Source: a virus (lineage: Duplodnaviria > Heunggongvirae > Uroviricota > Caudoviricetes). From it: a stretch of 40,283 bases of DNA. A program made the position numbers and the translations under genes. The notes under the pieces are model-generated. The model was not told the DNA's origin. It saw nothing but the letters and a program-made list of their open reading frames with translations, and searched no databases. Shown here one piece after another: positions 3,792 to 40,283 of the stretch (position 1 is its first letter; the number at the start of each line of letters is the position of its first letter). The stretch covers positions 1 to 40,283 of IMG/VR virus record IMGVR_UViG_2909309443_000006, one strand, 5' to 3'.

Positions 3792-3818
3792 AAAAAAGCC
3801 CGCCTGAACCGGCGGGCT
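3792..3818 (-). terminator. Intrinsic terminator downstream of lom
   Basis: 8 bp GC-rich hairpin (3797-3818) followed by T6 on the minus strand. Confidence 0.5.
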
Positions 3819-3844
3819 GTCATAACACTGTGTTACCTGGCTAA

Positions 3845-4444: not shown

Positions 4445-4468
4445 AATTACCTCTCGCTTTTCTGCAAT

Positions 4469-4492
4469 AAAAAAGGCACCATTTCTGGTGCC
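4469..4492 (-). terminator. Intrinsic terminator between J and lom
   Basis: Hairpin GGCACC-ATTTCT-GGTGCC followed by T-run on the minus strand. Confidence 0.45.
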
Positions 4493-4511
4493 CGTATCTG
4501 GGTTATAAAAT

Positions 4512-7500: not shown

Positions 7501-7991
7501 AGATACTGTGAGGTGGTTTTTCCCTTAATGGTGATGTCTTTTTCCGTCACCCAGCCACCGTTACGTTGTATCTGAACCAGCAGGCGGACTTCCGACGGAT
7601 TCCGGTCCCCCTTTGAGGTGGTTTCCACCAGTGCCTGCACGCCGAAAGTAAAACGCAGACGGTCAATGTTTGCCGACGTAATGGTGCGGGTGATCGGCGT
7701 GTCGTACTTCACTTCCGTACCCAGTACCGTCTCGGAGCCGGAGGATTCAAATCCCTCCGGCGGAGTCTGCTCCTGCTCACCGGCCCGGAACACCACCGTG
7801 ACGCCGGATATATTGGTATTCCCCTCACTGTCCAGCACCGGCGTACTGTTCAGCAGCACGCTTTTTAATCCATCCACCGGACCTTCAATCGGCCCTTCGC
7901 TGATGGCATCAATCACACTCAACAGCTGCGTGGATTTCAGGTTATCTTTCGCTTCGCGCGGGGTATGCCCCTTACTGCTGCCTTTACCCAT
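4512..7991 (-). CDS. J: Tail tip host-specificity protein J
   Basis: 1159 aa; N-terminus [37 protein letters not shown] is lambda J-like; position after I. Confidence 0.95.
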
Positions 7992-8051
7992 TCGTCATGC
8001 TCCATAAACGACAAAACCGCCCGGAGGCGGTTTCACATAAAACATTTTGCA

Positions 8052-8693
8052 TCAGCGACCAATCACCACAACCTGACCACCATCCCCTTCGTCTGCCGTG
8101 CTGATCTCCTGAGAAACCACGCGTGACCCCACGCGCATTTCACCGTACAGAACAGGCAGAACATTGCCCTGGGCAACCATGTTATCCAGTGAAGAAAAAT
8201 AGGTGTTCTGTTTGCCGTTATCCGTTGTCTGTGTGCGGGGGGTTTTGGGTTTAGGGGCCAGCATCTGTGCAACACCGCCAAGCGTCATACTGGCACCGAG
8301 AGAAAACAGCAGATTACTCGCCATAATTCCTACCCCCGGCATCCATATAGCAACCGCCATAACAGCCGCCCCCAGCACAGCCTGAAACACACCGCCACTT
8401 TTGGCTCCTGCCAGACGCGGCACGATATGGATCACAGCACCATTTGCCAGCGGTTCATTAAGACGGGCTGATAATTCCGTTTCACCTGTATCACGCCCGG
8501 CAATGCGTACCTGATACCAGCCGTCGCTCAGCTTCTGACGAAACGCCGGGATCTGCATGGCCAGCGCCCGGATGGCTTCGGCCCCCGTTTTCACACGCAG
8601 ATCGATGCGGCGGCCAAATCGTTGTAAATCCCCGTAAAGGCAGATACGTGCCATGCCTGGTGACGCCAGAGGGAGTGTGTGCGTCGCTGCCAT
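8052..8693 (-). CDS. I: Tail assembly protein I
   Basis: MAATHTLPLASPGMARICLYGDLQRFGRRIDLRVKTG matches lambda I; C-terminus VVSQEISTADEGDGGQVVVIGR. Confidence 0.9.
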   Translation of the reverse strand: MAATHTLPLASPGMARICLYGDLQRFGRRIDLRVKTGAEAIRALAMQIPAFRQKLSDGWYQVRIAGRDTGETELSARLNEPLANGAVIHIVPRLAGAKSGGVFQAVLGAAVMAVAIWMPGVGIMASNLLFSLGASMTLGGVAQMLAPKPKTPRTQTTDNGKQNTYFSSLDNMVAQGNVLPVLYGEMRVGSRVVSQEISTADEGDGGQVVVIGR

Positions 8694-9334
8694 TTGTCGG
8701 TATACCTCTCTCGTTTGCTCAGTTGTTCAGGAATATGGTGCAGCAGCTCGCCGTCACCACAGTAAATGGCGGCATGATTCGGCACCGATGAACCAAAACA
8801 GCACAGCAGCACATCGCCCGGCTGCGCCGCTGACAACGGCACCTGATACAGCCCTGTGGCCTCCAGATTATCCAGATAGAGATTCTGACCGTGACGCCAC
8901 CAGTCATCCCCGCGATGAAAATCCGGCATCTCAATCCCCGCCAGATGATAAGCATCCCGGAACAGCGTGTAACAGTCCGTCACCCCGTGCTCAAAGCGCC
9001 GCCCGGTAAGATGCGGCACACTGCGGAATTTATGAATCTCACCCCGACAGACCAGCCACCAGGGCAAATCGCTCTGCACCTGCAGCCGCCTGTCAGCCTC
9101 ACTCAGCCAGGGCAGACCACCGGGGTGGCTGTGGACCAGCGCCACAATCTCACCCTGCATCTCTGCCCGCAGCCAGTCCTCCGGCGACATCCGGAAATAC
9201 GCCTCCGGCTCACCGGAGATATTCACGCAGGGAAAATATCTTTCCCCCTCCGGCGTTCTCACCACGAAGCCGCACGATTCCGCTGGCGCACATCGCCGGG
9301 CGTGCGCCAGAATCGCTGATTCTGTCTGTGTCAT
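8591..9334 (-). CDS. K: Tail tip assembly protein K (MPN/JAMM + NlpC/P60 domains)
   Basis: MTQTESAILAHARRCAPAESCGFVV start (ATG at 9334, directly after L stop); HSHPGG motif; overlaps I as in lambda. Confidence 0.85.
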   Translation of the reverse strand: MTQTESAILAHARRCAPAESCGFVVRTPEGERYFPCVNISGEPEAYFRMSPEDWLRAEMQGEIVALVHSHPGGLPWLSEADRRLQVQSDLPWWLVCRGEIHKFRSVPHLTGRRFEHGVTDCYTLFRDAYHLAGIEMPDFHRGDDWWRHGQNLYLDNLEATGLYQVPLSAAQPGDVLLCCFGSSVPNHAAIYCGDGELLHHIPEQLSKRERYTDKWQRRTHSLWRHQAWHVSAFTGIYNDLAAASICV

Positions 9335-9338
9335 GGGA

Positions 9339-10037
9339 TTACTGCGAAAGTTTGTTAATGGAAAGGAAGCCGCCAAAGTTGCCGACGTTATTGCGAAACT
9401 TACAACCACTCAGGCATTTGCTGCATTTATCCTTCGTGATATCGGACGTCGGCTGGTCATATTCATCAGCGACAGCCGGACCGTGATAACCGCACTCATC
9501 GCCGCGATAGGTCCAGGTGCAGGTGTTGGCCAGCATGATGCGCCCCGGAAAAACAGCACCATCCGTTTCCGTCGGTGTGGAGAGCACAAAGGAGGCACTG
9601 ACCGCACTCAGTTCGCTACACTGCTCGATGCGCCAGCGGCTGATCACCTCCTGCTCCGGATCGGCGTCGCTGTTTCCGTTGACGAAGTTCACCGCATCCA
9701 GAAAGCGGGCGTAAACCTTACGCCTGACCACCGTTCCGCCGACCAGACTCTGCAGGTCTTCCGCCATCCCGGTGACCATGCCGTGCAGGTTAGAGACCGT
9801 CAGTGTCGGACGGGCAGCACTGCCCTTACCGTTCAGTTCAAATCCCGTCCCCTGAATGGGGTATGCCTGATACTGCCGCCCCTGCCAGGTGACCGGCTCA
9901 CCTTTTTCGTTCTGCTCATTACAGAAAAAATAACGTTCACCACCGACCTCTGTCAGATCGATTTCCCAGAGCACCACTTGGGCTGACTGAGTAAGGCGTG
10001 TCGTCTCATGATGTGTTTCCTGTGGAATATCCTGCAT
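9339..10037 (-). CDS. L: Minor tail protein L
   Basis: 232 aa lambda L-like ORF with C-terminal Cys cluster; synteny M-L-K-I-J. Confidence 0.9.
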   Translation of the reverse strand: MQDIPQETHHETTRLTQSAQVVLWEIDLTEVGGERYFFCNEQNEKGEPVTWQGRQYQAYPIQGTGFELNGKGSAARPTLTVSNLHGMVTGMAEDLQSLVGGTVVRRKVYARFLDAVNFVNGNSDADPEQEVISRWRIEQCSELSAVSASFVLSTPTETDGAVFPGRIMLANTCTWTYRGDECGYHGPAVADEYDQPTSDITKDKCSKCLSGCKFRNNVGNFGGFLSINKLSQ

Positions 10038-10046
10038 CAGGGCCTC

Positions 10047-10376
10047 CTATGCCACGACCTGTTCAAAATCTGCCGTTATGGTTACCCACAGCGCCCCCAC
10101 GCTTGCCGACCATTTACGACAAACCACCGTGATCGGCTTCCAGTCATAAGGTGGCGTCCACTGAAATGCGCGGACGCCACCGTGCCGTTCCAGAAAGGCT
10201 TTCAAAGATGGGTGTTCACATTTACGAACACGTATCGTCACGCTGTAAGTCGACAACTGGTTATTCAGTCCCGCCGCACGACGCTGTTCATAACCATCGC
10301 CCAGCTTCACTGTCACCACTTTCGGCTCTGATACCACATTCATATCCGGGCGCACTTTCCAGTGAAACGTCTCCAT
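10047..10376 (-). CDS. M: Minor tail protein M
   Basis: 109 aa lambda M-like ORF; start overlaps the tape-measure stop. Confidence 0.9.
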   Translation of the reverse strand: METFHWKVRPDMNVVSEPKVVTVKLGDGYEQRRAAGLNNQLSTYSVTIRVRKCEHPSLKAFLERHGGVRAFQWTPPYDWKPITVVCRKWSASVGALWVTITADFEQVVA

Positions 10377-12820
10377 TACCGATATGCTCCACTTAACCGA
10401 CCACCATCACGGGCCTGCTGTTGCATAAAGTCCGCTGCTGCTTTTTTCCCGAGGTCATAAACCACCTTCAGGGCAGCCGGACCTATCTGCCCGTTCGTAC
10501 CATCGTTATTGATCTCGATGTTGTACTGCGGGGCAAACATCACCATACCTGAACCACCAATATCCGCCACAACACCCAGCTTGCCATCAGCACCACGACG
10601 CAATGGCAGAATGGCTTCAGACCCCGCTTCTCCCATCACACCCGCGCCTTTTGCAAAAGCAAAAAACGTCGGACGGTTAACCACCGTGCCACTGTAGCGA
10701 CTCAAATCAGCAGACTGATAAACACCGCCATCCGCATTTGGCGTCACACTGGCAGCTGCTGCACTCCCCCAGCCAAACGCCGAACCAATCCCCTTCACCG
10801 CCTGCATCATGGCCATCTGCGACATGATTTTTGCCAGATCAGAAAGGAGCGAGGCGGTAAAAGATTTGAAGTTCAGTTTTCCGGTGGTGCAGAACGTCGC
10901 CAGTGCATTACCTGCGCTGTTAAATGCCGCTGTAAACATCTGCTCAGCGGTACCTGCCGCGTTATCCGCACTCTCTGTAAAATTCTGAAACGCCCGCATG
11001 GCACCGTTTTTCCAGTCTGCCTGCATCAGTTCCTGCTCCTGCCAGTAATGTCTGTTTTCGTTCAGTTGCCGGTTAAGACTGTCTGTCAGCATCTGCTCAG
11101 CATCCCGGTATTCATCTGAGCCGTATGTTCCTTTCTGTTTACTGTCACGCTCCAGTTGCTCCATTTGCTGCTGATATTTCTGTTGCAGACTGAACTGTGT
11201 CTGGTACCGCTGACGCTGTTTATCCCCCATCCCTGTTGTGGCGATATCCAGGTCATGTTGCTGACGCAGAGCCCGTTCCTCTTCCGCCAGCTGGCTGGCA
11301 AGCTGAATGGATTTTTTCTTCAGGTCATTCAGCGCCGTCTGCTTCTGCAGCTCCTGCTGTTTTGTATCCAGCAGCGTCAGTGCCTGAATCAACTCATCCT
11401 TATGCGCCAGCACGCTTTTTTCATCTGCTGTCAGCTTTTTACCCGCCAGATCACTGATACGCTGCTGCAGGGCCAGAAGCTGCTTATGCGCCTCTGTCAT
11501 TTTTTCCGTGGTCAGTCCCGCGGACTGTCTGGCGGCGGCAATCTGCCCCTCCACCTGCGCCTGCTGCTGACTGTACTGCAACAGCAACCGGGTGGCTTCA
11601 TCATTGCGGTTTTCAGATGTTTTTTTCTTAATGGCTTTTTTGTAACGTTCATTTTCACGCTGTATCGCTGCGTCCCTGACCGCCTGGTCGGCATACTGCA
11701 TGGCATTGATGCGCGCAATTTCACGTTGATGTCGCGCCGCCTCCGTTTCATTCATCCGGTTCAGCGCAGCATTTTCAGCATTCCGGCGTTTCTGCTGTTC
11801 CTGATAATTTCGTTCAGCCTGCGCTTTTGCATCCTGTAAATCTTTCTGGCGCTTTTTCTCCTGAAGTTCATCAAGGCGCTGCTGGTCGTATTCCACTGTG
11901 GTGGATGCATTTGTCCAGGGCGATTTTTTCGCACGCTGAATTTTTTCCTGCAGCGCCGCAATCTGCGCATCAAGGGAATCATTACGCCCGATATTCATGG
12001 CGGCATCCCAGAACTGCTTCCACCAGTCAGATAAGGTTTGCAGCGTACTGCCCAGCGCATTGAGATTATTATCAATATCAGATGTGCGTTTACCGGTTTC
12101 CTCTGCCAGCGCTGACATGGCGATCCGGGCAGCATCACTGGCACGCCCCTGTTCCCCGAGAACACGGACTTGTTCAAGCTGGGTGGCAGTCAGGAAATGC
12201 AGTTCATTATCCAGCGTCCTGGCTGCATTTACCGGATCATCCTTCAGTCGCTTAAACTGACTTATGGTGTCGCTGACAGACTGCCCCACTGAACGTTCCA
12301 TTTGCGCGGCAGCTTTCGCCACCATGGCGATATCACCTCCACGAAATGCACCACTCCCCACCACCTGAGCCAGCGCACCGGCTGCAGCATGTTGCGTGAT
12401 ACCATTCCCGGAAATAGCACGACTGAGCACCCACAGCTGCCCGGCAGTGACTCCGGCATAATGCCCCGTCAGCGACAGCTGGCGGTTAAATTCTTCCCCC
12501 TCCTTCTGACCGTCATACCAGGCTTTACCCAGACCATAGACGGCCGCGGCAATACCGCCAATAACCCCGCCAAGCATCATGCCTTTCGGTGACATCAGTG
12601 TGTCTATCCATCCGGCACGGTTAGCCAGCGTTATCCCGGATCCCCTCAGCGCCCCTAAATTGCCGCGGGCCAGTTCACCTATCAGAACGCCTATCTCCTG
12701 GCGGGCTGCTGCACTTTTCAGACCCAGCGAATGCGTGGCTTTTCCTGCCCGCTCCATTTTGCGGATATACACTTCTGCAGCACCGCTTACCCCCAGCTGG
12801 GCTGCCCTGGCGCGAAGCAA
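10376..12820 (-). CDS. H: Tail tape measure protein H, apparently 5'-truncated (no ATG or SD at ORF start)
   Basis: C-terminus INNDGTNGQIGPAALKVVYDLGKK...RDGGRLSGAYR matches lambda H; coiled-coil Q/E/R-rich middle; ORF opens with TTG about 48 residues into the lambda H alignment, with an in-frame stop 13 codons upstream. Confidence 0.8.
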   Translation of the reverse strand: MLRARAAQLGVSGAAEVYIRKMERAGKATHSLGLKSAAARQEIGVLIGELARGNLGALRGSGITLANRAGWIDTLMSPKGMMLGGVIGGIAAAVYGLGKAWYDGQKEGEEFNRQLSLTGHYAGVTAGQLWVLSRAISGNGITQHAAAGALAQVVGSGAFRGGDIAMVAKAAAQMERSVGQSVSDTISQFKRLKDDPVNAARTLDNELHFLTATQLEQVRVLGEQGRASDAARIAMSALAEETGKRTSDIDNNLNALGSTLQTLSDWWKQFWDAAMNIGRNDSLDAQIAALQEKIQRAKKSPWTNASTTVEYDQQRLDELQEKKRQKDLQDAKAQAERNYQEQQKRRNAENAALNRMNETEAARHQREIARINAMQYADQAVRDAAIQRENERYKKAIKKKTSENRNDEATRLLLQYSQQQAQVEGQIAAARQSAGLTTEKMTEAHKQLLALQQRISDLAGKKLTADEKSVLAHKDELIQALTLLDTKQQELQKQTALNDLKKKSIQLASQLAEEERALRQQHDLDIATTGMGDKQRQRYQTQFSLQQKYQQQMEQLERDSKQKGTYGSDEYRDAEQMLTDSLNRQLNENRHYWQEQELMQADWKNGAMRAFQNFTESADNAAGTAEQMFTAAFNSAGNALATFCTTGKLNFKSFTASLLSDLAKIMSQMAMMQAVKGIGSAFGWGSAAAASVTPNADGGVYQSADLSRYSGTVVNRPTFFAFAKGAGVMGEAGSEAILPLRRGADGKLGVVADIGGSGMVMFAPQYNIEINNDGTNGQIGPAALKVVYDLGKKAAADFMQQQARDGGRLSGAYR

Positions 12821-14415
12821 CTCAGAAGATGAAAGATTCTGGCGGGTTGGCGGGCTTTATCCAGCGATGCCACGTCCATTGCAGCGCTCTCCAGTACGTT
12901 TGCATGTTTCGCTTTATCGAACAGACTTACATTATCTGTGGAGATTTTCGGGTTAGACGTCAGAATGGCATAAACCAGATCGGCAATAGTGGATTTCGCC
13001 GCACGGCCCAGTTTCATCGGGACATCGGTCAGCATATTCAGATCATCATTGATAATGGCCTGACGGGTGATACTGAACAGCTCGCCATAGGTCGCCAGTG
13101 CAATAGTGGCCTGTTTATCTCCGGTGGTGACGTATTTATATTCCGCCCCTTCACGCACCTGACGCAGAGCACTGAAGCCACCCATACCCACACGATGGGC
13201 AATTTTAAAATCAGACAACTGACCTTTCCGCGTCCACTGTTCATAGGTTTCAGGGGCATCTTCCCAGCCCTGCAGAATGGCTTTGTTCGCAACATCCAGC
13301 AGAATATTACCGAAGTCAGACGTACTGTGTGTGAACGCCGCACCGACCATCTGCATCGGGTTATAACTGGAAACCCCAATACCCCGTTCAGTCAGTGACA
13401 TACGGGCATATTCACGCAGGGTCATCCCGTTGTAGACATTATCACGTTCGGTTTTTTCAAATCCGGCACGCGCCATCAGCGCCTGGCGGATCCCGTCCCC
13501 CACAAAATTACCGTTACCGGCATAAATATGAGCCGGGGTATTTTTATTGGATGGCGTGGACTCGCGCCCCATCTCGTTCAACAGCTTTTCACGGGCCTGC
13601 TCCAGCGAACATTCAGGATCGGCAAGACACTGAGCCTGCAGCGTCTGATAACGCCCGCCAAACATGGCAAACAGATCATTAATACCGTTTACACGCGCTT
13701 TTTGCTCTGCCAGTACCTGCGCACGGATGCTGTTTTCATCCACCACGGGTGCTGCTGCCTGCACTGGCGTCCGGGAGGCTTCAGGTTCATTATCCTGTAC
13801 GCGTGGAGCACTGTTGCGTGGCGGAGTAATCATGTTTCGAATGGATTCCGGCATCTTTTTAAATTCCTCTGTACGTTTTGACTGAATACATGCCATTGCC
13901 TTAACGGCTGGCGTTACCTGATCAGCAAATCCATGTGCCAGGCATTCGGCACCGGACATCCAGGTCTCATCCGCCAGCATGGCAGCAATTTCATCGGTGG
14001 TTTTCCCGGTTTTCTGTGCATAAGCGGGTAACAGAACCGCCTCAACTTTATCGAGCAGGTCGGCATAGGTGCGCATGTCCTCCGCATCACCGCCCGTAAA
14101 GCCAAATGGTTTATGAATCATCATGAAGGTGTTTTCCGGCATAATGACCGGGTTTCCCACCATCGCAATGACCGACGCCATTGACGCCGCCACACCGTCG
14201 ACATAAACGGTAATGGACGCACCATGTGTTTTCAGTGCATTAAAAATGGCGATGCCTTCAAAGACATCGCCACCCGGTGAATTAATATGGAGATTAATGT
14301 GGGTGATATCGCCCAGTGCATTCAGATCACTGATAAACTGCTTCGCTGTAACACCCCAGAAACCAATCTCGTCATAAATATAAATATCCGCGTCACTCTG
14401 GTGACCAGCCTGCAT
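12787..14415 (-). CDS. Prohead protease (ClpP/S14-like) - scaffold - major capsid fusion protein, likely 3'-truncated at a deletion junction
   Basis: ClpP-like N-terminal region (DIYIYDEIGFWG...HINSPGGDVFEG...MASVIAMVG); capsid-like C-terminal region; ATG at 14415 just after portal stop; runs 34 bp into the H reading frame. Confidence 0.6.
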   Translation of the reverse strand: MQAGHQSDADIYIYDEIGFWGVTAKQFISDLNALGDITHINLHINSPGGDVFEGIAIFNALKTHGASITVYVDGVAASMASVIAMVGNPVIMPENTFMMIHKPFGFTGGDAEDMRTYADLLDKVEAVLLPAYAQKTGKTTDEIAAMLADETWMSGAECLAHGFADQVTPAVKAMACIQSKRTEEFKKMPESIRNMITPPRNSAPRVQDNEPEASRTPVQAAAPVVDENSIRAQVLAEQKARVNGINDLFAMFGGRYQTLQAQCLADPECSLEQAREKLLNEMGRESTPSNKNTPAHIYAGNGNFVGDGIRQALMARAGFEKTERDNVYNGMTLREYARMSLTERGIGVSSYNPMQMVGAAFTHSTSDFGNILLDVANKAILQGWEDAPETYEQWTRKGQLSDFKIAHRVGMGGFSALRQVREGAEYKYVTTGDKQATIALATYGELFSITRQAIINDDLNMLTDVPMKLGRAAKSTIADLVYAILTSNPKISTDNVSLFDKAKHANVLESAAMDVASLDKARQPARIFHLLSCFAPGQPSWG

Positions 14416-14428
14416 CCTGAACCAGGAA

Positions 14429-15857
14429 TTATTCTTCGGACTGGTCGTCGGTGTGCTGCGGCTCCTGTCGTTTCGTTGCGGCACTGCTGCCTCCTTTATC
14501 ACTGGCCGGATCGGTATCAAATACCAGATCCAGTTTGCGGTTTTCATCAATTTCGGCCTTGCGCCGACGTTTGACATCATCCGGATTACGACCACCAGCA
14601 CGTACCCAGTCTGATTCTGTCGCCGCTCCACCACGAATCTGGATTTTCCAGGCCTCAGCCTCCTTAACAGGGTCAATCCACGGCATCACCGGTCCGGAAT
14701 ACACCGCGGTATACAGTGAAGAACGGTCAAGATCGCGGGGTAGCCTGATAACACCGGATGCCACAGCCTGTTTCAGCCAGGCACGATACATCGGACGGGT
14801 GACGGCACCAATAAACCAGTCCTGCAGGATCAGGTAGCCATCAGTGGATTCAACCAGCTCCTGACGCTGGGCGCTGTAAGTGCCGTTATAGTTGCGCGCT
14901 GTACTGGAAAAACTCAGACGACTGCCCGCCGCCACGGCACGCAACTGACCATTACGAAAAGTTTCAAGGTTAGGATTGGGGCGATCCGACTTCACCATTC
15001 CGATTTCTTCGCCGGGTTTCAGATCATCGTAAATAATGCCTGGCTGAATGGTAAGCTCGCGTTCCTTATCCTTGCTGCCATTACCATCCGCTTCATAGCT
15101 CTGCCCGTCGCCTTTCCGGATGTACATCCCCAGAGCAGCGGCGATCCTTGCTGCAGTCAGCTCAGAATCTTCATACTCTTTCAGAGCACTGAGGCGGATC
15201 AGCACACCGGACAATAAAGACGTCCCGCGCATCTGGTGCAGACGGCGAACAAATTTAAGATGCAGCATTCGCTCTGCATCCACTTCTTTGGTTTCCATCT
15301 GCCGTCCGGATACGGGACGGCTTTTATACACCAGATATTTTTCGGGACGCCTCCAGCCAGAAATGAACACCGGCAGAAGGCGTCAGGCTGTTTATGCGCC
15401 CGGAAACCATCTGGGCAAACACCTCACCATCGCGCAGCCAGGTACGCAGCATCAGACGTTCCAGCATCGGACGGGTAAACTGCCCGGTGACTTCCGGGCT
15501 GACAGACCATTCACTCCATCGGGTGCGAATCTCCGCAGCCAGATCACGGGCAATGGCCCCATTGCGTAATACCGGATGTGGCTCGACAATAATCCCGTTT
15601 TTCCCCACCACCCGTTCTTCCAGCTTGTCAAATACACCAATGACCAGATCGTGGTTGTTATCAAGGTAACGGGCCTGCTCACGTAACGACACGGCCCCGT
15701 ACTGGCTTAACTGGTCGGCAGTTCGGTTTTCCCGCCGGGCTTTGTGTGTCCGCGTCGTTTTTACGGCCTCATAAGCCTGGATCACCGCCCGGGAACGCAG
15801 CCTTGCCGCTTTCCATCCTGGTGAAAAAACGCCAATCACATCATCAAGAATTGCCAT
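14429..15857 (-). pseudogene. Portal protein, disrupted by a +1 frameshift in an A5 run (plus-strand T-run 15338-15342)
   Basis: Two overlapping ORFs (15324..15929 and 14429..15370) read as one portal if one A is removed; start ATG at 15857 overlaps the upstream stop (TGATG). Confidence 0.75.
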
Positions 15858-16075
15858 CAGAACCTCGCCAGCCGGTACCCGGGATGCCCCCGTCGTCGTG
15901 TAATCAGAGCCGCAAGGCGGCGCTCCCACTCCTGCCGTCCCTGCCGGATCTCAGATAAGTTTTCCATGGTCATCTGCTGACCATTAAAGGTGACGGATTT
16001 TCCGTCCAGCACCGCCATTTCAGCTTCCGTATAACGCTGAATCATGGCTTCGATATCATTCTGGTTCATAACCAT
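15857..16075 (-). CDS. Head-tail joining protein, gpW-like
   Basis: About 70 aa ORF between terminase large subunit and portal, the lambda W position; start may be the ATG at 16069 (ATGA overlap with terminase stop). Confidence 0.55.
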   Translation of the reverse strand: MVMNQNDIEAMIQRYTEAEMAVLDGKSVTFNGQQMTMENLSEIRQGRQEWERRLAALITRRRGHPGYRLARF

Positions 16076-18168
16076 CCTCCGGAAGTCAGCCAGGGGTTAA
16101 CATCGTCAGTTACTGTTTTCTTCCGTTTTTGTTTTTTAACAGGCGTGGATACCGGTTCCGGTGAGGGTGACGGTTCGGTACTGTCCGGGACACACTCCAG
16201 CCAGGTTTCCCGGCTCGCCCACTCCGGTGCATCCGGCCAGCGGATCTTTTCGTATCCATGCAGAATGACCAGAGCCTCGGCATACACCATCAGGTCAAAA
16301 GCTTCGTTGGCACCGCGACCCGGCTTACTCCATTTCCCGTCACTGCTCCGCTCTTCATACGTCAGTTCGTCGTAAAACCAGCTCCCCAGCCAGTCAGGGA
16401 AATGCACATAGCCGGGACCTGGCGAGTCACGCCATAACGCGTTATTCACCCGGTCTTTCAGGGCATCCGTCTGAAGAAGCCAGAGCGGCACATCACCTGC
16501 GGCCTGCGCCCGGCGGCCCGTTCGTCCGGTGTTATCAGGGAATGTACGGCTGATCAGTTTTGCGCGCCGGATGCTGTCACCCTTAAACAGGTAAATACGT
16601 TTACCAAGGCCATCACGACGGCAACGACGCCAGAATTTATAGGCATTATCAGTGACCCCGTCTTCACCGCCGGAGTCCACCGCCATTGCCATCAGTCGCA
16701 TTTGTTGAGAAGGATCGGAGGCCAGCGGCCAGCTTTTATGAAAAACATCCGTCAGCAGGACATCCCAGTCTTCCGGGTAGCTGGCCGGATCAATTCGCTG
16801 GCTCTCCCCGTCGCTGTCACCGCGCAATGACTGCGTGATGTTGTAACGATCAATAATCCAGCGTTCGCCACGGCTGCCATAGCCCGTTACCTGAACCACA
16901 AAACGGCGATGACGTCCCGCCTGCACATCCACTGTCGCCACAAGGAAATTAACGCCATCCGGCACACTGCGGGAAAGAACTGGCTCTGCCCGCTGCTCAA
17001 GCAGTTCACTTTTTCGTTGCTCCATGCTGGCACGGGGAAGATAAGGTAATCCCCAGTCGGTATTGATAACCGTCTTGAGTGTTTCTTCACTTCCGGTTGT
17101 CTCGTATTCCTGTTCTGCAGTAAGCAGTTTGTAAACGAGTTGCGAGAGTGTCTGGTAAGCAGCTGCCGGACCCTCCATCCAGAATGACGCAATACGTGAG
17201 CGTCGGGGATCACCATAACGACTGCCATCCGCATTGATGGATTCACCATCCCGCAACCAGACCCCACGTCCGTTCAGCTCACGTTTTTGTTCAGGCATAA
17301 TCCGTCCTGAACAGGAAGGACACTGAATATAAGCCGCCTCACTTGCCAGCACGGGATCGGCAATATCACGGAAACCAGCAACCACATCGCCGCAGGGCTG
17401 AAAATACTCACCACAGTGTGGACAGGGCCAGTACCAGCGACGGCGATCACCACGGTTATAGAGCGACAGGATCCCCGTGGTTGGTGGAGCCTCATGCGGT
17501 GAAGTCCGTCGCCATTTCACATCCTTCACATCCCTGCCGGGGGAACTCTCCACCAGCGTCATACCACTGGACATAAATGTTGTGGTACGTTTTGAGGCAA
17601 GAGAGAAAGCATCCCCCTCGCCATCAATATCTTCCGGAAAACGGTCATAATCCGTCAGCGCGACGCATTTATAATCTGATGAGGACATGATATTGACTGA
17701 CGGCCAGCCGATTTTCAGGTAGTTACCAGCAAGGAATGTTCTGTCATAAACGTTGTTGTCATTTTTGTTCGGACTCAGGCGACTGACCACTTCCGGGCTG
17801 ACGCGAAACGTTCTGGCAAGTCGTTTTTTGGAGTGTTCGCGGGCTTTTTCCTCCGTCATCTGAATGATCAGCATATCCGCAGGATCGCAAATCACGTTGT
17901 AAATCACCCAGCCGTCAATCAGGCCGATAGTCTTGCCGGTTCGTGCCGGGCCAACAAATATCACTGCGTCGTATTCACGCGAGGCCAGGCAGTTCATCGG
18001 CTCAATAACATACGGTGCCACCAGCGGATCCCACGGGACTGAGTTCCCGGCCCCCATGGGCACCCGCATATATTGAGCAACGGCATCAGCAACCTGCATT
18101 CGTCTCGGTGCGCGAAGGATATAACCTGAATCGGTTCGTGCTGCCTTTGCGGTTTCCTGATTCAGCAT
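16066..18168 (-). CDS. Terminase large subunit (lambda A-like)
   Basis: 700 aa; Walker A-like VGPARTGKT; Zn-ribbon-like CPHCG...CPSC; position after small subunit. Confidence 0.85.
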   Translation of the reverse strand: MLNQETAKAARTDSGYILRAPRRMQVADAVAQYMRVPMGAGNSVPWDPLVAPYVIEPMNCLASREYDAVIFVGPARTGKTIGLIDGWVIYNVICDPADMLIIQMTEEKAREHSKKRLARTFRVSPEVVSRLSPNKNDNNVYDRTFLAGNYLKIGWPSVNIMSSSDYKCVALTDYDRFPEDIDGEGDAFSLASKRTTTFMSSGMTLVESSPGRDVKDVKWRRTSPHEAPPTTGILSLYNRGDRRRWYWPCPHCGEYFQPCGDVVAGFRDIADPVLASEAAYIQCPSCSGRIMPEQKRELNGRGVWLRDGESINADGSRYGDPRRSRIASFWMEGPAAAYQTLSQLVYKLLTAEQEYETTGSEETLKTVINTDWGLPYLPRASMEQRKSELLEQRAEPVLSRSVPDGVNFLVATVDVQAGRHRRFVVQVTGYGSRGERWIIDRYNITQSLRGDSDGESQRIDPASYPEDWDVLLTDVFHKSWPLASDPSQQMRLMAMAVDSGGEDGVTDNAYKFWRRCRRDGLGKRIYLFKGDSIRRAKLISRTFPDNTGRTGRRAQAAGDVPLWLLQTDALKDRVNNALWRDSPGPGYVHFPDWLGSWFYDELTYEERSSDGKWSKPGRGANEAFDLMVYAEALVILHGYEKIRWPDAPEWASRETWLECVPDSTEPSPSPEPVSTPVKKQKRKKTVTDDVNPWLTSGGWL

Positions 18169-18662
18169 TACTCCTCCTGCTGTAATTCCTCCTCATCATC
18201 CGCACCTGCTTCGGTCACCCGCAGGGCTATCTGATCGCGCAGATCATCAATAATGGACTGAACACGGCTCACAGCGGCAGGCTGCAGACCGCAGTCACGT
18301 TCAAGAATATCCGGTAATGTCTCCAGCACCTGCACGACCGCTTTTGCCCAGATGGCAAACTCCCGTCTGACATCACTGGCCGGAATGAGTTGCGCCGTTT
18401 CCTGTTCGAACTTAAGACGCTCACGTTCAGACTGATACCAGGCTTTGCGCTCATGCGCATCCATTTCGCCTTCTGCAACCGGCGGTGGTAATGCCAGAAA
18501 TGCCGACACAATATCAACCACCCGATAAAGCTTGAGGTTGCTTTCATGCCCCCCTGCAACGGGTAGATTTTGCAGCCTTGCCGCAGCAGTCTGGCGATGT
18601 ACACCTGACAATGCCGCCAGTTGACTGATATTCAGCGTCAGATTTTTTAACTCTCGATCCAT
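18168..18662 (-). CDS. Terminase small subunit (Nu1-like)
   Basis: 164 aa with N-terminal HTH-like LNISQLAALSGVHRQTAAARL and acidic C-terminus; immediately upstream of terminase large subunit. Confidence 0.6.
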   Translation of the reverse strand: MDRELKNLTLNISQLAALSGVHRQTAAARLQNLPVAGGHESNLKLYRVVDIVSAFLALPPPVAEGEMDAHERKAWYQSERERLKFEQETAQLIPASDVRREFAIWAKAVVQVLETLPDILERDCGLQPAAVSRVQSIIDDLRDQIALRVTEAGADDEEELQQEE

Positions 18663-18831
18663 ACCCGCTCCAGAATGTTTTAAACATGCATCTTGCGAAC
18701 AACTTTAGGCAAACGGTGTTAGTGATGAACAAAAAACAATCAGAATCGACACCATAAAAATAAAATCACTGTAATATCAATCAATTACAGTGATGGTGAT
18801 GACGAATAAAATTTCAAAAACTAGCCTTTTT

Positions 18832-18857
18832 CCGCGACGCTCCCGCCCCGTGGCAGG
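18832..18857. other. Candidate cos site region
   Basis: GC-rich motif (minus strand GGGGCGGGAGCGTCGCGG) about 170 bp upstream of the Nu1-like gene, reminiscent of lambda cosN GGGCGGCGACCT. Confidence 0.25.
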
Positions 18858-19126
18858 CCACCCCACCGGAAGGACCCGCACAAATGAGAGCTTTTATCAT
18901 TAACATTTACAGATAAGATGACGTACATCATTGAAACGCCATTCAGCCATATACCGGCAGCATTCGTAGTTGCACTCCGTAACCCTGCGACTAAGGTTGA
19001 AAGCATGGCCATCTTTTTGCCACCGGCAAATCTTCAATGGATTTCCCCTGCCGGTTTTTTATTTCTCACATTATCGCAGCCACTCAGTGTGAAGGGCTGC
19101 TGTAATGCCGCAATCTTTTTTAACAT

Positions 19127-19153
19127 GAAAAAGGCCGCAGAGCGGCCTTTATG
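19127..19153. terminator. Intrinsic terminator (bidirectional form) downstream of small cargo genes
   Basis: Hairpin AGGCCG-CAGAG-CGGCCT flanked by A5 and T-rich stretch. Confidence 0.5.
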
Positions 19154-19169
19154 GTTTATTGACAATTGA

Positions 19170-19385
19170 TTAAGACGTGTGGCACTTATTGGCACACCAA
19201 TAGCAACCATTCACCCGGGAATATCCTTTGGCCTTTGCCTCTGTTACCGCCGAAGAACAATCACTATAGTAACCAAGGTAATCGCGGTTAGCTACAGAAG
19301 GAAGATATGAACATTCCTCAGCATGCACCTCATGATCGCCATTGCTCTGAGCATTTTTGTTCACGTAATAGTGTTTAAAAACCAT
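19170..19385 (-). CDS. Hypothetical small Cys-containing protein
   Basis: 71 aa ORF with ATG and GGAG Shine-Dalgarno; C-terminal CYWCANKCH. Confidence 0.5.
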   Translation of the reverse strand: MVFKHYYVNKNAQSNGDHEVHAEECSYLPSVANRDYLGYYSDCSSAVTEAKAKGYSRVNGCYWCANKCHTS

Positions 19386-19508
19386 TGTATAACTCCATGT
19401 TGACGCTGATATTCAGCATTAACATGCTATATCACCAATTACACAAACATAAGCTTGTTATTTCAATTAGTTGATAACGATCACCACTGAACTTTGGACT
19501 TGCGAAAT

Positions 19509-19718
19509 TCAAATGTTTTTCTGACTATTATTGGGCCGATAAACAGATATTATTTGAGCGTTTTGGTTCATTACATAAGCAATATCTCCATCTTTCAGAA
19601 TGACTTTCCCATCCTTTCCCGATACGGCAATACTCCGCTGCTCTGGATGATAGCCAATGCTACGCCCGCAATGGAGCTCTTCCCCACCATTTTGAGACAT
19701 GACTTTTACAGTTAACAT
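19509..19718 (-). CDS. Hypothetical small protein
   Basis: 69 aa ORF with strong SD (AGGAG) upstream of ATG at 19718. Confidence 0.5.
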   Translation of the reverse strand: MLTVKVMSQNGGEELHCGRSIGYHPEQRSIAVSGKDGKVILKDGDIAYVMNQNAQIISVYRPNNSQKNI

Positions 19719-19805
19719 TTTTCTGCTCCTATTTAGATGCCCTTTCCATCCGGGCCACTGTTCAAAGTAAATTTAGATTCAACAATATTCTGCTCTTACA
19801 GGCGA

Positions 19806-19988
19806 TCAGTTCTGCATACACTGCCTGGCACTTTCGACAATTTCGCAGACCTGCGAGGCCGTATCGAAAAGCTGGCGCACCTTATCCAGGCTAACGCATC
19901 CCACCAGGAAAAAAGGCACCAGTATCGCTACCAGTGCCCATTTCGCCGCCGTTCGCGGCATTCTGTGTGTCCAGTGTTTTCGGCTCAT
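19806..19988 (-). CDS. Small lipoprotein (possible Rz1/o-spanin-like lysis accessory)
   Basis: ATG at 19988 with AGGTGG SD; signal peptide with lipobox FLVGC; mature part about 30 aa; directly downstream of endolysin. Confidence 0.45.
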   Translation of the reverse strand: MSRKHWTHRMPRTAAKWALVAILVPFFLVGCVSLDKVRQLFDTASQVCEIVESARQCMQN

Positions 19989-20002
19989 AAACCACCTGGT
20001 TA

Positions 20003-20380
20003 TTAGCGCTTCAACTGAAAGTGAGGCCCGTCTTTCAGTGTTTTCCAGTCCCCGCCCCATTCGATGGCAGTTCCCAGCTCTGCGGCAGCCTGCTTAAATG
20101 CCTGCGCGATTTTCTCGTACAGAGGCCAGTCCCATGACACCTGGCTACCAATGTAGGCCACAACATCCACCGCATCACCGGTCAGGTGGCGGCTGTTCAT
20201 GGTCTGGCTTTTCCCTTCCGCGACCAGCTGCTTCTGGCGATACTTACTGCGCAGGCCTTCCGTAATACCGAAGTCAACCTCCGTCAGCTCCAGCGCACGG
20301 CGAACAACAGCAACCAGCTGTGGTTTGACGCCCTCCAGATTTTTCTCACTTCGACGACTGAATCTGAATTTACCGGGCAT
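20003..20380 (-). CDS. Endolysin, peptidase M15 family (L-alanyl-D-glutamate peptidase type)
   Basis: SRHLTGDAVDV (H-x6-D) and C-terminal GGDWKTLKDGPHFQL motifs; ATG at 20380 with GGAGGTGA SD. Confidence 0.75.
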   Translation of the reverse strand: MPGKFRFSRRSEKNLEGVKPQLVAVVRRALELTEVDFGITEGLRSKYRQKQLVAEGKSQTMNSRHLTGDAVDVVAYIGSQVSWDWPLYEKIAQAFKQAAAELGTAIEWGGDWKTLKDGPHFQLKR

Positions 20381-20382
20381 AC

Positions 20383-20658
20383 TCACCTCCGTAATGAAAG
20401 GATTTTTGATACGTTCCCGCGTGCTCGTATCACCAGCACGCAGAACACCAGGTTAATCAGGACGACCAGCCAGTTACCGGGTGGAAAGCGACCACACAGA
20501 TAACAAAGTGGCGCAAAGGCATACAGCAGCATCAGCAGCCAGGCCAGCCACGACATCAGCGGTTTATGTCTGGAATCACCACGACGATAAAAAAAGAGCG
20601 TCAGCACGATAACCGTGCTTAACACCACATTCAGTAATCCGGGAAGGTTACTTAACAT
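20383..20658 (-). CDS. Holin-like membrane protein (three predicted TM segments)
   Basis: 91 aa from ATG at 20658 (GGAGG SD); hydrophobic segments; sits between holin and endolysin. Confidence 0.55.
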   Translation of the reverse strand: MLSNLPGLLNVVLSTVIVLTLFFYRRGDSRHKPLMSWLAWLLMLLYAFAPLCYLCGRFPPGNWLVVLINLVFCVLVIRARGNVSKILSLRR

Positions 20659-21037
20659 TACCGCCTCCACCCCGCAGACGGGAGAACACACCGGACACCA
20701 GCGATGCAATATCCTGCTGGTGGATGAACGACAGAATCTTCACCGACACCACCGATACCAGCACCGCACACAGCGCATCTGCCGATGTACCGTCATACCC
20801 TGTTTTTGATGCAATCCAGGCTGACAGCACGCGCGCCCCCAGCACGCCGACGATAAACGACACCAAAAAATGCGCCACCACACGCCAGACTGAAAGCGCC
20901 TGCGGCATCGTTGCCACAAATAACGCCCCGGCGAACGCACCAAACACAATCCCGAAATCCGTTCCGGTAAACAGCCCGAATACCGTCGCCCCACCGAGCG
21001 CCGCAGCCGTGCCGGAACCAGATAAGGGTTCAGACAT
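20648..21037 (-). CDS. Putative holin (Gly-rich multi-TM membrane protein)
   Basis: 129 aa from ATG at 21037 (AGGAGA SD); several Gly/Ala-rich hydrophobic segments; first gene of lysis cassette. Confidence 0.55.
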   Translation of the reverse strand: MSEPLSGSGTAAALGGATVFGLFTGTDFGIVFGAFAGALFVATMPQALSVWRVVAHFLVSFIVGVLGARVLSAWIASKTGYDGTSADALCAVLVSVVSVKILSFIHQQDIASLVSGVFSRLRGGGGNVK

Positions 21038-21201
21038 ACGTTTTTCTCCTGTAAATAAAAAAGGGCCACCAGCGGCCCGTAAAAACACCCCGTCAAAGGC
21101 GCCCGCAGATGCCTTTTGCGCGGCGTTATTTGATGTGATATGCGCCGGGTGTGGCGAGGATATGAAAAAGGCCGCCGTAGCGAGCCATGAAAAAAATGAA
21201 T

Positions 21202-21501: not shown

Positions 21502-21576
<75 letters not shown>

Positions 21577-21579
21577 ATA

Positions 21580-21655
<76 letters not shown>

Positions 21656-21657
21656 AC

Positions 21658-21734
21658 TGGCCCGCCACCGAGGACTCGAACCTCGCACACTCAACTTAAA
21701 GGGTTGACGCTCTTTCCTGATGAACTGGTGACGG
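21658..21734 (-). tRNA. tRNA-like gene with non-canonical anticodon loop (CCUUUAA, C at position 33); possibly degenerate tRNA-Lys
   Basis: 77 nt cloverleaf foldable (acceptor with one G-U, T-stem CGAGG/CCUCG, T-loop UUCGAGU, CCA encoded) but position 8 is C and U33 is replaced by C. Confidence 0.45.
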
Positions 21735-21735
21735 T

Positions 21736-21811
21736 TGGTGGCCCTTGCTGGATTTGAACCAGCGACCTGGCGATTATGAGTCGCTCGCTCTCACCACTGA
21801 GCTAAAGGGCC
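21736..21811 (-). tRNA. tRNA with CAU anticodon, ileX/ileZ-like (tRNA-Ile2; Met not excluded)
   Basis: 76 nt; GGCCCUUUAGCUCAGUGGUGAGAGC...CUCAUAA...GGUUCAAAUCC...CCA; resembles E. coli ileX as remembered. Confidence 0.8.
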
Positions 21812-21860: not shown

Positions 21861-22910
21861 TCAAACGATTAAATCCTGAACTTCCCTGACTGTCTGTTCA
21901 AAACGTCCTGTCTCCAGCTCAACACCAATCGCACAACGCCCCAGTGCCATCGCCGCTTTTACCGTTGAACCTGAACCCATAAAAAAATCTGCAACCAGGT
22001 CTCCCGGACGACTGCTCGCGTTGATTATCTGCTGCAGCATTTCTGCCGGTTTTTCGCACGGATGTTTCCCTGGATAGTACTGCACCGGTTTATGCGTCCA
22101 GACATCGGTGTACGGAACCTGCGCCGTCACACCGAAATACCGCCGCAAATTTTTATATTCACTCAGCAATTCCGTATACTGCCGGTTCAGCTCACTGTAT
22201 GTGCTGACCAGCTGGTGGTGTGGTTTTTCCAGTTCCCCGCGCTGATGTTTTTCTGCCGCAACACGCGCAAACAACGCCTGCAATTTGTTGTAATCACCCT
22301 CGTTCGGTAACTGCCACTGACTGGTACCAAACCAGTGCGAAGCCATGTTTTTCTTTCCGGTGGCTTCCGCTATCTGTTTTGACGTTATTCCCAGTGATTT
22401 ACGCGCATCACGAAAGTAAGAAATCAGCGGGGCCATGACGTGCTGTTTTAGCTCGCGCCCCTGTGCCACATAGCCATCATCTTTCGGGCGATACGGTCCC
22501 TGATAATGTTCTGCAAACAGAATGCGCTCTGTTGCCGGAAAATACGCCCGCAGACTTTCCTTATTGCACCCGTTCCAGCGTCCGGACGGCTTCGCCCAGA
22601 TAATGTGGTTCAGCACATTAAAGCGCTCACGCATCATGATTTCGGTGTCAGATGCCAGGCGATGACCACAGAACAGGTAAAGACTTCCGGCAGGCTTCAG
22701 TACCCGCCAGAACTGCGCCAGACACTGGTCCAGCCATTTCAGGTAATCATCGTCGCCCTCCCACTGGTTATCCCAGCCCTCGGGCTTCACTTTAAAGTAT
22801 GGCGGGTCTGTGACTATCAGATCGACAGAGTTTTCCGGTAAGGTCTGGATAAATTTCAGGCAATCAGCGTTGATTAACTCACAACTGGATATTTTTACAG
22901 TATTAGTCAT
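21861..22910 (-). CDS. Orphan DNA methyltransferase (beta-class N6A/N4C amino-MTase)
   Basis: 349 aa; DPPY motif (LIVTDPPYF) near N-terminus and AdoMet-binding FMGSGST near C-terminus; no adjacent restriction gene. Confidence 0.8.
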   Translation of the reverse strand: MTNTVKISSCELINADCLKFIQTLPENSVDLIVTDPPYFKVKPEGWDNQWEGDDDYLKWLDQCLAQFWRVLKPAGSLYLFCGHRLASDTEIMMRERFNVLNHIIWAKPSGRWNGCNKESLRAYFPATERILFAEHYQGPYRPKDDGYVAQGRELKQHVMAPLISYFRDARKSLGITSKQIAEATGKKNMASHWFGTSQWQLPNEGDYNKLQALFARVAAEKHQRGELEKPHHQLVSTYSELNRQYTELLSEYKNLRRYFGVTAQVPYTDVWTHKPVQYYPGKHPCEKPAEMLQQIINASSRPGDLVADFFMGSGSTVKAAMALGRCAIGVELETGRFEQTVREVQDLIV

Positions 22911-23477: not shown

Positions 23478-24221
23478 CTAATCTGACGTCACACGCACCA
23501 TTATACTTACTAAAGAAAAGTCATCATCAGGTCCGGCTCTCTCTATACGACGCAAAATGCCATTAGAAAACTTCTGACTATTACTCATCGTATTTGATGT
23601 AAATCTGGGGCGTTTTTCCCAAACGTTATGAACCCCATCAGACATGATACACAGATGATATACCCCGTTAATACTAGGTAAATCTTTCCATGTGATAAAA
23701 TCACAGTCGTATTCCATATCAACATTTGAGGCTATAGCCGTCGTTAAGATATTTTTGCCCGGTTTATCCTTCAAATCTCTGGGTTTAAAAATATTCTGAT
23801 CAATTAGCATCTGATGCCTGGTATCGTCCTTCGTCAATTGGTATGCTTTCTTCTCTCCAATGCAATACAAACGACAATCACCAATATGACCAATAATAAT
23901 TCCGCTATCACAAACATAACAAAACGTAAGTGTAGTAGCAGCTTTATCGAACTCATCATTAACATCAGCTAACGACATAACCTTTCGCTTAACTTCATCA
24001 AATACATCCGGAACTGTGTCAAAAGATAAGCTTGTCAATGCTGAAAGTTCAGCAATTGCCATTGATGAAGCCTGACTGGCACCAGTGTATGAACCTACAC
24101 CATCAGCTACGGCAAATAAGATGCCATCCCCTACAATTTTGGGAGGAAGCAATGAATCTTCGTTGACCCTACCTGGTTCTTTTGGATACGAGAATGATGA
24201 AGTCGCTATCAGCTGAATCAT
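23478..24221 (-). CDS. PP2C-family (PPM) Ser/Thr protein phosphatase
   Basis: 247 aa; motifs NEDS, FAVADGVGS, GHIGDCR, MSDGV, acidic C-terminal DDDFSLVSIM; AAGGAG SD; start ATG overlaps kinase stop (ATGA at 24218-24221). Confidence 0.8.
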   Translation of the reverse strand: MIQLIATSSFSYPKEPGRVNEDSLLPPKIVGDGILFAVADGVGSYTGASQASSMAIAELSALTSLSFDTVPDVFDEVKRKVMSLADVNDEFDKAATTLTFCYVCDSGIIIGHIGDCRLYCIGEKKAYQLTKDDTRHQMLIDQNIFKPRDLKDKPGKNILTTAIASNVDMEYDCDFITWKDLPSINGVYHLCIMSDGVHNVWEKRPRFTSNTMSNSQKFSNGILRRIERAGPDDDFSLVSIMVRVTSD

Positions 24222-24982
24222 GACTCACTCCTTAAAAAAGAATGCACAAAATCAAACGCCACATCATCTATTGTCTGATATCTATCATCTTTATCCATCC
24301 TGGTACACTTCGCTATGATAGGCTTTATTTTTTTATCATCTAAATTTAAGTCCTCAATTAACCGCCCCACCGCATAAACATCAGTCTTAACTGAATACTC
24401 GGCATTATATAAAATCTCGGGAGCCATATATCTTGTACTTCCCATACGGGTACCGATCTCGGTCAATTTAGTGGTATCCCCTTCGGGATTTGTATCTTTT
24501 ACCAGACCAAAATCAGACACCTTGTATGTTCCGTCGCTAAATCGCAAGACATTAAATGGTTTTATATCTCTGTGTAAATAGCCTTTCGCATGGATGTGAG
24601 CTACACCATCTAATACCATTTTCACTATTGAAATTTTTTGATCTGTTGTAAGAAGGTTGTTCGTTATTTCGTGCTCAAGATCACATTCTGCTTTATCCAT
24701 AATGAACCATGGATTCTCGGCAAACAAATCGCACAAATAAATAGGAACAATATTGCTATGTACGCAATGTGATTGATACACGACCTCCCTTTTAAAACGC
24801 CTTCTAAACTGCTCTATTTGCGCCAAAAGCTCTGGTTTTTCGGGGGCTAAAACCTTTCTAGCATAATCCCCACATTCACCCTTGTTGAGGTTGTAAACCT
24901 TAACGTGTTCAACAAAGCCAAATGCACCCCTTCCAATCAACTGAATTCGTTTTATAAAGTAATTACCGTGCTGTTCTTCCAT
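24218..24982 (-). CDS. Hanks-type (eukaryotic-like) Ser/Thr protein kinase
   Basis: 254 aa from ATG at 24982; Gly-loop GRGAFGFV, Lys in YARKVL, catalytic loop HRDIKPFN, DFG (VSDFGL), APE (YMAPE). Confidence 0.85.
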   Translation of the reverse strand: MEEQHGNYFIKRIQLIGRGAFGFVEHVKVYNLNKGECGDYARKVLAPEKPELLAQIEQFRRRFKREVVYQSHCVHSNIVPIYLCDLFAENPWFIMDKAECDLEHEITNNLLTTDQKISIVKMVLDGVAHIHAKGYLHRDIKPFNVLRFSDGTYKVSDFGLVKDTNPEGDTTKLTEIGTRMGSTRYMAPEILYNAEYSVKTDVYAVGRLIEDLNLDDKKIKPIIAKCTRMDKDDRYQTIDDVAFDFVHSFLRSES

Positions 24983-38925: not shown

Positions 38926-39174
38926 ATGGCAAGACTTATTCTGCTCACTGAGTGGGCAAAAGAGGAATTCAGCGATCCGGTCCCTACTCCGGGCACGTTA
39001 AGTAAATACGCTAAAGCCGGAATGATATTTCCTCTTCCCAAAAAAGTTGGGAGACACTGGCGAGTGGATCCGCGAGCTCGCTTTGTCGGAATGGTAAACA
39101 AGCCGGAGGTGATCGCTACAGATCACCCAGCCTTGAAGAGGATACTGGAAGATGGCGCGCCCGCGAAAATATAA
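38926..39174 (+). CDS. xis: Excisionase (Xis)
   Basis: 82 aa lambda Xis-like; overlaps int start by 23 bp. Confidence 0.75.
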   Translation: MARLILLTEWAKEEFSDPVPTPGTLSKYAKAGMIFPLPKKVGRHWRVDPRARFVGMVNKPEVIATDHPALKRILEDGAPAKI

Positions 39175-40283
39175 AACTGATGTTCCGGGATTATCTCCGT
39201 ATTTTGACAAAAGAAATAACAAAGTTTACTGGCGTTACAGGCATCCCATAACAGGCAAAAATCACGGTCTCGGCAGTATTGACCAGAAACTGGCAGAAAC
39301 TATTGCAGCAGAAGCGAACAGCCGTCTTGCCAGGCAGCAAATGAAACAAATGCTCAGTCTGCAGGAGAAAATTATTAATGATACCGGCGGTTCATCAACC
39401 GTTTCCATTTTTCTGAATAATTACAGAAAAATTCAACAGGAAAGATATGAAAACGGAGAGATCAAACTCAACACGCTGAAACAAAAAGCGGCCCCTCTCA
39501 GGGTATTTGATGAACGTTTTGGCACCAGACCGTTAGATGCCATAACCGTAAAAGATGTGGTATCGGTGCTGGAAGAGTACAAGGCCAGAGGACATAACAG
39601 AATGGGACAAATTTTCAGGAAGGTACTGATCGATGTTTTCCGGGAAGCCCAGCAAACAGGCGATGTTCCGCCAGGCTTTAACCCTGCAGAATCGGCAAAA
39701 AAAACCGCAGGTGCGGATATCAAGGCAGCGACTGACTTTTGATGAGTGGATGATGATTTATAACGCAGCGGAAAAGGATGGTTACTTTTTACAGCGCGGC
39801 ATGCTGCTGGCACTGATGACAGGCCAGCGCCTTTCAGATATTTGCAAAATGCAATTTTCGGATATCCGGGATGGTTATCTTCATGTCGAACAGCAAAAAA
39901 CAGGAACCCGGATTGCCATCCCTCTTGCTCTGCGTTGCAATAAATTAAATCTCACCCTGGATGATGTGGCGTCATCCTGTCGCGATTGCGTTCTTAGTCC
40001 GTGGCTATTGCACCACCATCATGCGAAAGGGACAGCCAAGCGCGGCGGGATGGTTAAGCCAGCAACGTTAACAGTTGCATTTAAAAAAGCGCGGGACTCT
40101 GTAGATTACAACTGGTGCGCTAATGGTACCCCACCCTCTTTCCATGAACAGCGATCATTGTCGGAGCGTTTGTTCAGGGAGCAAGGGATCGACACCCAAA
40201 TTTTGCTTGGCCATTCGAATCAAAAAATGACCGATATTTACAACGATGCACGTGGTAAGGAGTGGAAAAAACTGGTCATTTGA
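39152..40283 (+). pseudogene. int: Tyrosine integrase (lambda Int family), disrupted by a +1 frameshift in an A8 run (39697-39704)
   Basis: ORF 39152..39742 has N-terminal Int domains and ends NPAESAKK...; ORF 39633..40283 continues in the -1 frame with RLTFDEWMMIYNAAE and catalytic-domain motifs (HEQRSLSERL, LLGH, Y); lambda Int alignment spans the junction. Confidence 0.8.

Follow-up and report, generated by a model that had tools for sequence, protein, structure and literature searches.

The integrase gene (int) of an ompW prophage is split into two reading frames at a run of eight adenines, and removal of a single A from this tract yields one open reading frame (ORF) of 376 amino acids identical to WP_001394170.1, the annotated integrase of sister genomes. 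Since the change of frame falls exactly on the A run and the repaired product agrees with a known protein at every residue, the split is not a chance arrangement. The analyzed sequence, referred to here as the window, is the 40,283-nt IMG/VR record IMGVR_UViG_2909309443_000006, and as written it holds either an int pseudogene or a miscalled int rather than a functional member of the family. These two readings, a real mutation or a consensus miscall, were rated about even.

The window is a lambdoid prophage of an ETEC lineage-2-like genome, where it occupies the 3′ end of ompW. The source record was absent from the RefSeq complete E. coli genomes, the phage records, and the IMG/VR contigs searched and was identified by exact-protein look-up as CP024266.1 (GCA_002741515.1). 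This genome matches the window with 100% identity over 11.1 kb, and in it ompW starts 45 bp beyond the int stop codon. The window begins ∼0.5 kb inside the left prophage end and finishes at the int stop codon, with both att sites lying outside it. Many IMG/VR proviruses of the ompW prophage family likewise end at the int stop codon (position 40283 in the window). The nearest complete genomes, 2014EL-1346-6 (CP024232), E1316, E1739, isolate L1_E925 (LR883050), and TW10690, are all ETEC, and int is intact (1,131 nt) in all five. In a sister genome, ∼101 bp of the ompW 3′ end are duplicated at both prophage ends (locus positions 17741 to 17841 and 42633 to 42733), indicating that the ompW 3′ end is replaced by one carried on the phage.

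The features discussed are collected in Table 1. The excisionase gene preceding int is annotated in sister genomes as WP_000113182.1. The exonuclease has a long acidic, low-complexity middle and is intact and conserved in the sisters, and the kinase, phosphatase, and methyltransferase genes form accessory cargo kept in all sister copies. PGAP annotated three tRNAs only (Gly, Lys, and Ile) in the sister genomes; the second Lys tRNA called in the window may be spurious or degenerate.

Table 1. Coordinates of features within the window, numbered from its first base
Feature	Position	Strand	Details
4,160-bp deletion junction	12848..12849		AH19K002 prophage locus positions 4841-9000 missing from the window
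Portal C-terminal fragment, 289 aa as called	14429..15298	-	PF05136 profile positions 159-354
Portal N-terminal fragment, 177 aa, with out-of-frame tail	15324..15857	-	PF05136 profile positions 3-127
80-bp portal deletion junction	15348..15356		One copy of a 9-bp direct repeat remains; alignment to AH19K002
Second singleton one-base indel	21171..21172		Intergenic, holin to tRNA region; CC here, CCC in 21/21 complete genomes
tRNA cluster	21502-21811	-	ARAGORN: Gly(UCC), Lys(UUU), second Lys(UUU), CAU-anticodon tRNA
DNA methyltransferase	21861-22910		After the kinase/phosphatase pair
PP2C phosphatase	23478-24221	-	Downstream of Q antiterminator
Ser/Thr protein kinase	24218-24982	-	Adjacent to the PP2C phosphatase gene; downstream of Q antiterminator
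Exonuclease, 823 aa	36390-38861	+	YdfE_N, YdfE_C, and C-terminal Rv2179c-like 3′-5′ exonuclease domain
xis, 82 aa, intact	38926..39174	+	PF07825, E = 4.4e-7; overlaps int start by 23 nt
int upstream ORF, 196 aa	39152..39742	+	ATG 39152, stop TGA 39740-39742
A8 homopolymer	39697..39704	+	Upstream-frame reading GCA AAA AAA A; read directly
int native linker end and catalytic domain, restored residues 185-376	39705..40283	+	+1 frame

The upstream int ORF comprises native residues 1 to 184, which contain the arm-binding and core-binding domains; it then continues out of frame for 12 residues (TAGADIKAATDF) before reaching a stop codon. The initial annotation had likewise ended it at 39742. That annotation had also attributed the interruption to one added A in an A8 run and proposed that A7 would restore a single frame, and both proposals agree with the sequences compared here. 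The tract, flanked as GCAGAATCGGC-A(n)-CC, has one A more than in every close relative, where A7 codes for Ala-Lys-Lys-Pro, and deletion of one A gives the 376-amino-acid WP_001394170.1. The catalytic ORF had been placed in the −1 frame, which is incorrect; it lies in the +1 frame, as the upstream codons are phased on 39704 and the downstream codons on 39705, and the shift needed to reach it is +1 or −2. This second ORF is open from 39633 to 40283, the final base of the window. The gene caller started a 176-amino-acid downstream product at the ATG at 39753. Another in-frame ATG at 39750 lies 7 nt past the upstream stop, where the Shine-Dalgarno-like sequence that can be read is weak, and a product begun there would miss the first nine residues of the catalytic domain.

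Domain searches were performed with the restored protein. Pfam identified Arm-DNA-bind_1 (PF09003) at residues 2 to 71 (E value, 4.5e−22, over the curated cut-off), Phage_int_M (PF22022) at residues 120 to 170 (24.5 bits, slightly below the 27-bit curated cut-off), and Phage_integrase (PF00589) at residues 193 to 367 (E value, 1.7e−16). Residues 86 to 188 aligned with the structure of the lambda core-binding domain, 2OXO (E value, 1e−4), within a full-length alignment to lambda Int (E value, 4e−55) that runs straight through the junction. The earlier statement that the lambda alignment spans the junction is therefore correct, with the exception that the NPAE motif quoted as lambda sequence belongs to the window integrase; lambda Int has ...RAAKSEVRRSRLTADEY at this position. 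The tract encodes Lys183-Lys184, corresponding to lambda residues 171 and 172, and the break falls at the equivalent of lambda residues 171 to 173, in the linker that joins the region of the core-binding construct 2OXO to that of the catalytic construct 1AE9. The downstream ORF retains all six active-site residues (R226, K249, H331, R334, H354, and Y363). The window thus carries every sequence feature that defines a lambda-type integrase except for the single uninterrupted frame, which its A7 relatives have.

The length of the tract was compared across genomes and metagenomes. A7 was found in all five of the nearest complete genomes. A 71-nt query carrying A8 gave no match of ≥99% identity among complete Escherichia coli genomes, none of the 1,707 complete E. 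coli genomes matching a 38-nt A8 query reached ≥99%, and 1,443 E. coli records aligned to the 38-nt site with one single-base gap, as A7 would give; as an A8 copy carrying one SNP scores like A7 in such identity bands, these values exclude A8 only on the same 38- or 71-nt haplotype. In IMG/VR, A7 was counted in at least 120 contigs and A6 in one, at 29 bases from the contig end, while A8 and A9 tracts were not found there. Several short, non-partial C-terminal Int proteins (P0022, P0025, and P0026) were considered as frameshift alleles and rejected as contig-start artifacts.

An exact match to the 196-amino-acid truncated product was present in only two contigs among 153 billion gene positions, CP024266.1 and a Logan contig of run SRR24884213. 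The latter (5.8 kb) has A8 and the two int ORFs seen in the window, with 34 positions at which it departs from the source genome. One int SNP and ∼25 flanking SNPs place it with TW10690, which has A7, whereas the window groups at these positions with CP024232, E1316, and LR883050, all of which also have A7; the strain of SRR24884213 is therefore different from that of the window. Compared with TW10690, its nearest complete genome, the extra A is the only indel in the 5.8 kb, and the contig is therefore accurate. A6 was found in a 90%-identical ompW integrase from the draft genome GCA_013630675.1 and the Logan runs SRR12109247 and ERR4616331 (with the IMG/VR contig, loci L116 1832-1893, L117, L118, and L127 5933-5951). 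Together, the A6 and A8 alleles indicate that the tract truly changes length in nature, in both directions but rarely, length variants amounting to a handful of sequences (<1% overall). An additional A8 tract in CYGL01000217.1 was rejected as independent support because this metagenome contig shows, over 1.5 kb, six insertions of a single base without any deletion, several of these insertions lying outside homopolymers. Its int copy (reverse strand, 1 to 1540) is 95% identical and carries A8 plus five further single-base insertions, which points to a noisy assembly or else to a copy in advanced decay.

The extra A was given an even chance of being a real mutation in the DNA of the strain. A somewhat lower probability, just short of even, was assigned to a miscall, by which the strain would have A7 and an intact WP_001394170.1, and both the extra A and the missing C at 21171 would be homopolymer-length errors of a long-read-only assembly. 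Several observations speak for the miscall. Across 39,156 compared bases (24.2 kb of prophage, 9.5 kb of right flank, and 5.5 kb of left flank), the private differences of the source assembly were one substitution and two one-base indels, those just named, and the sister genomes together had about 14 private substitutions and no indels; if indels were placed at random among the changes, both would fall in the source genome with p ∼0.02 (hypergeometric). Within the 24 kb of shared prophage, the source has no private substitutions and two private indels, whereas only substitutions are private to the sisters. Among 1,707 complete genomes for the extra A and 21 for the missing C, neither indel occurs outside this assembly, and there is no other decay within int. 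A passage of PMC13212926 credits the neighboring accessions CP024232 and CP024260 to Smith et al. 2018 as “generated with PacBio sequencing.” The source assembly is probably from the same PacBio-only project, judging from these accession numbers, which would favor a miscall, and CYGL01000217.1 provides an example of A8 arising among evident insertion errors. A portal fragment and a J protein that are peculiar to this prophage matched CP024266.1 and no other indexed sample, so the strain has no second indexed read set.

Against a miscall stands the identical A8 allele in SRR24884213, a clean independent assembly of a different strain. The 15-kb chromosomal flank of the source assembly has no indels relative to the sisters, and thus the assembly is not grossly error-prone; likewise, ∼6 kb of head genes compared with AH19K002 contain no single-base indels, only one of the nine other A/T runs of at least 7 bases in the compared DNA differs, and a sister assembly from the same project is free of private indels. 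A real mutation is also consistent with the location of both singleton indels in prophage DNA, where selection would tolerate them, and with the ongoing decay seen in the two undoubted deletions of this prophage and the further large deletions of its sisters.

A purposeful use of the tract was considered very improbable. By this account, the tract would be either a recoding site, where slippage in transcription or +1 frameshifting by the ribosome sets a low level of full-length Int, or an A7/A8/A6 switch for phase-variable excision. Variants both longer and shorter than A7 do exist, on no fewer than three haplotypes (two for A8 and one for A6), AAA AAA A as read from the sequence lets tRNA-Lys re-pair in the +1 frame, and A runs of about 8 to 9 slip during transcription in E. 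coli. However, homologues do not share the split form: a single-ORF A7 gene is consistent with at least 1,443 genome records and at least 120 IMG/VR contigs, A8 is confined to the source of the window, one Logan contig, and one noisy contig, and every variant lies in an otherwise unchanged gene, as for sporadic recent mutations. No stimulatory RNA structure stands out beside the tract, as the segment from 39680 to 39760 folds with −15.9 kcal/mol (z = −0.05 versus shuffled sequences). Given the lack of both conservation and structure, programmed recoding was rejected. For phase variation, A7 is short for a contingency locus, and frequent length polymorphism was not found among close relatives, with the five nearest all carrying A7 and variants making up <1% overall. 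Very little credit was also given to the A7 tract of ompW-prophage integrases being a recurrent target at which changes to A8 or A6 repeatedly lock defective prophages in the chromosome, perhaps under selection and perhaps leakily, by slippage on the longer run.

The status of the prophage as a whole can be separated from that of int. Using the intact prophage of strain AH19K002 as the reference for alignment, the portal lesion, for which the initial annotation had left open a homopolymer sequencing error, was found to be an 80-bp deletion between 9-bp direct repeats and thus cannot be such an error; it looks like a slipped-strand or microhomology-mediated deletion. The capsid-to-H deletion noted in the same annotation was confirmed as a loss of 4,160 bp from capsid to tape measure. 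It fuses the ClpP-protease/capsid gene to the tape-measure gene, removing the last ∼130 codons of the former (itself a fusion gene) and the first ∼197 of the latter together with the head-completion, tail-shaft (tail tube), G, and T genes, and the capsid Pfam match ends at profile position 142 of 262. The description of the prophage as cryptic stands on the split portal and this deletion, with no need for the A run. As both lesions are rearrangements rather than homopolymer slips, the predicted particle defect stands regardless of A8, and from its gene content the prophage is judged unable to make particles whatever the status of int. The sister ETEC genomes compared here (loci L001, L002, and L003) lack window positions 3583 to 4658 (1.1 kb; lom and the end of J) and 5737 to 20734 (15 kb; J through the lysis genes). 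Being near-identical elsewhere but carrying other deletions, they indicate that one and the same prophage takes different routes of decay within a single clonal lineage.

If the extra A is a real mutation, replication slippage would have added one A to A7 at Lys183-Lys184, in the stretch that links the core-binding domain to the catalytic one. Translation of int would now halt 12 codons past the tract and give a 196-amino-acid fragment without the catalytic domain, while the catalytic domain, its six active-site residues kept, would be stranded in the +1 frame and untranslated or poorly translated. Because the remainder of int is identical to the functional allele, the change would be very recent. 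Excision that depends on Int should fail or persist only as a trickle, and any residual excision would come from occasional slippage on A8 or weak re-initiation at the ATG at 39750 or 39753. Low-level full-length Int may be produced through slippage of RNA polymerase or the ribosome on A8, where dropping one A from the transcript, or a slip of the ribosome by +1 on AAA AAA A, would bring back the wild-type protein exactly. The non-excisable state proposed in the initial annotation is a prediction, xis being intact and every catalytic residue being kept in the downstream ORF. As the prophage was already particle-defective by two deletions, the frameshift would be a further stage in the erosion of a cryptic prophage and would serve no designed purpose.

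The significance of the lesion extends little beyond annotation. If it is real, the ompW prophage of this ETEC strain is int-null and particle-defective and is expected to stay fixed in the chromosome, and this would provide a dated example of the speed of prophage decay within one clonal lineage, in which sister copies have lost 15 to 16 kb of structural genes and kept int intact. If it is a miscall, the element has intact int and xis genes and should be able to excise, as its sisters are expected to, yet remain particle-defective; in that case, one-base homopolymer frameshifts in long-read-only assemblies need read support before they are given a biological reading.

Compared with known systems, the window int shares the arm-binding, core-binding, and catalytic layout of lambda Int (PDB 5J0N, 1Z1G, and 1Z1B; 2OXO and 1AE9), with lambda R212, K235, H308, R311, H333, and Y342 corresponding to R226, K249, H331, R334, H354, and Y363, and lambda also has xis upstream of and overlapping int. 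The restored window protein is 376 amino acids against 356 for lambda Int, and the integration site is the ompW 3′ end rather than the attB between gal and bio used by lambda. The closest counterparts are integrases of other ompW prophages (PPompW of EHEC, annotated intE, and the ETEC proteins WP_001394170.1 and WP_000113689.1), which represent the same gene at the same insertion site. These prophages have in common with the window the order exonuclease, xis, int, with ompW 45 bp downstream, and their int copies share 92 to 99.9% DNA identity with that of the window, but are single ORFs with A7 where the window has A8. In EHEC, PPompW sits in tandem with Stx2a phages in records of ∼90 kb (LC567818, LC567820, and others), and PPompW records share only ∼33% of the right half of the window, at 92% identity.

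Transcriptional slippage at poly(A) tracts is known to rescue frameshifted genes, and recoding sites are found in IS elements and dnaX. As in those systems, an A-rich slippery run lies at the frame junction in the window, and an mRNA with one A fewer would encode the wild-type protein. Unlike them, the frameshifted form is not conserved in homologues and has no stimulatory structure, and efficient slippage is usually reported for tracts longer than the A8 run. Homopolymer frameshifts in genes of defective prophages and homopolymer miscalls in long reads are both familiar, and the split int is ordinary gene decay or a sequencing miscall, neither of which calls for a new mechanism. The defective prophages of E. 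coli K-12 and O157 Sakai have been eroded by deletions between short repeats and by frameshifts while retaining regulatory, toxin-antitoxin, and accessory genes. The window prophage shares this piecemeal decay and does not differ from them in kind, its int lesion being set apart from those cases as so recent that the rest of int is unchanged.
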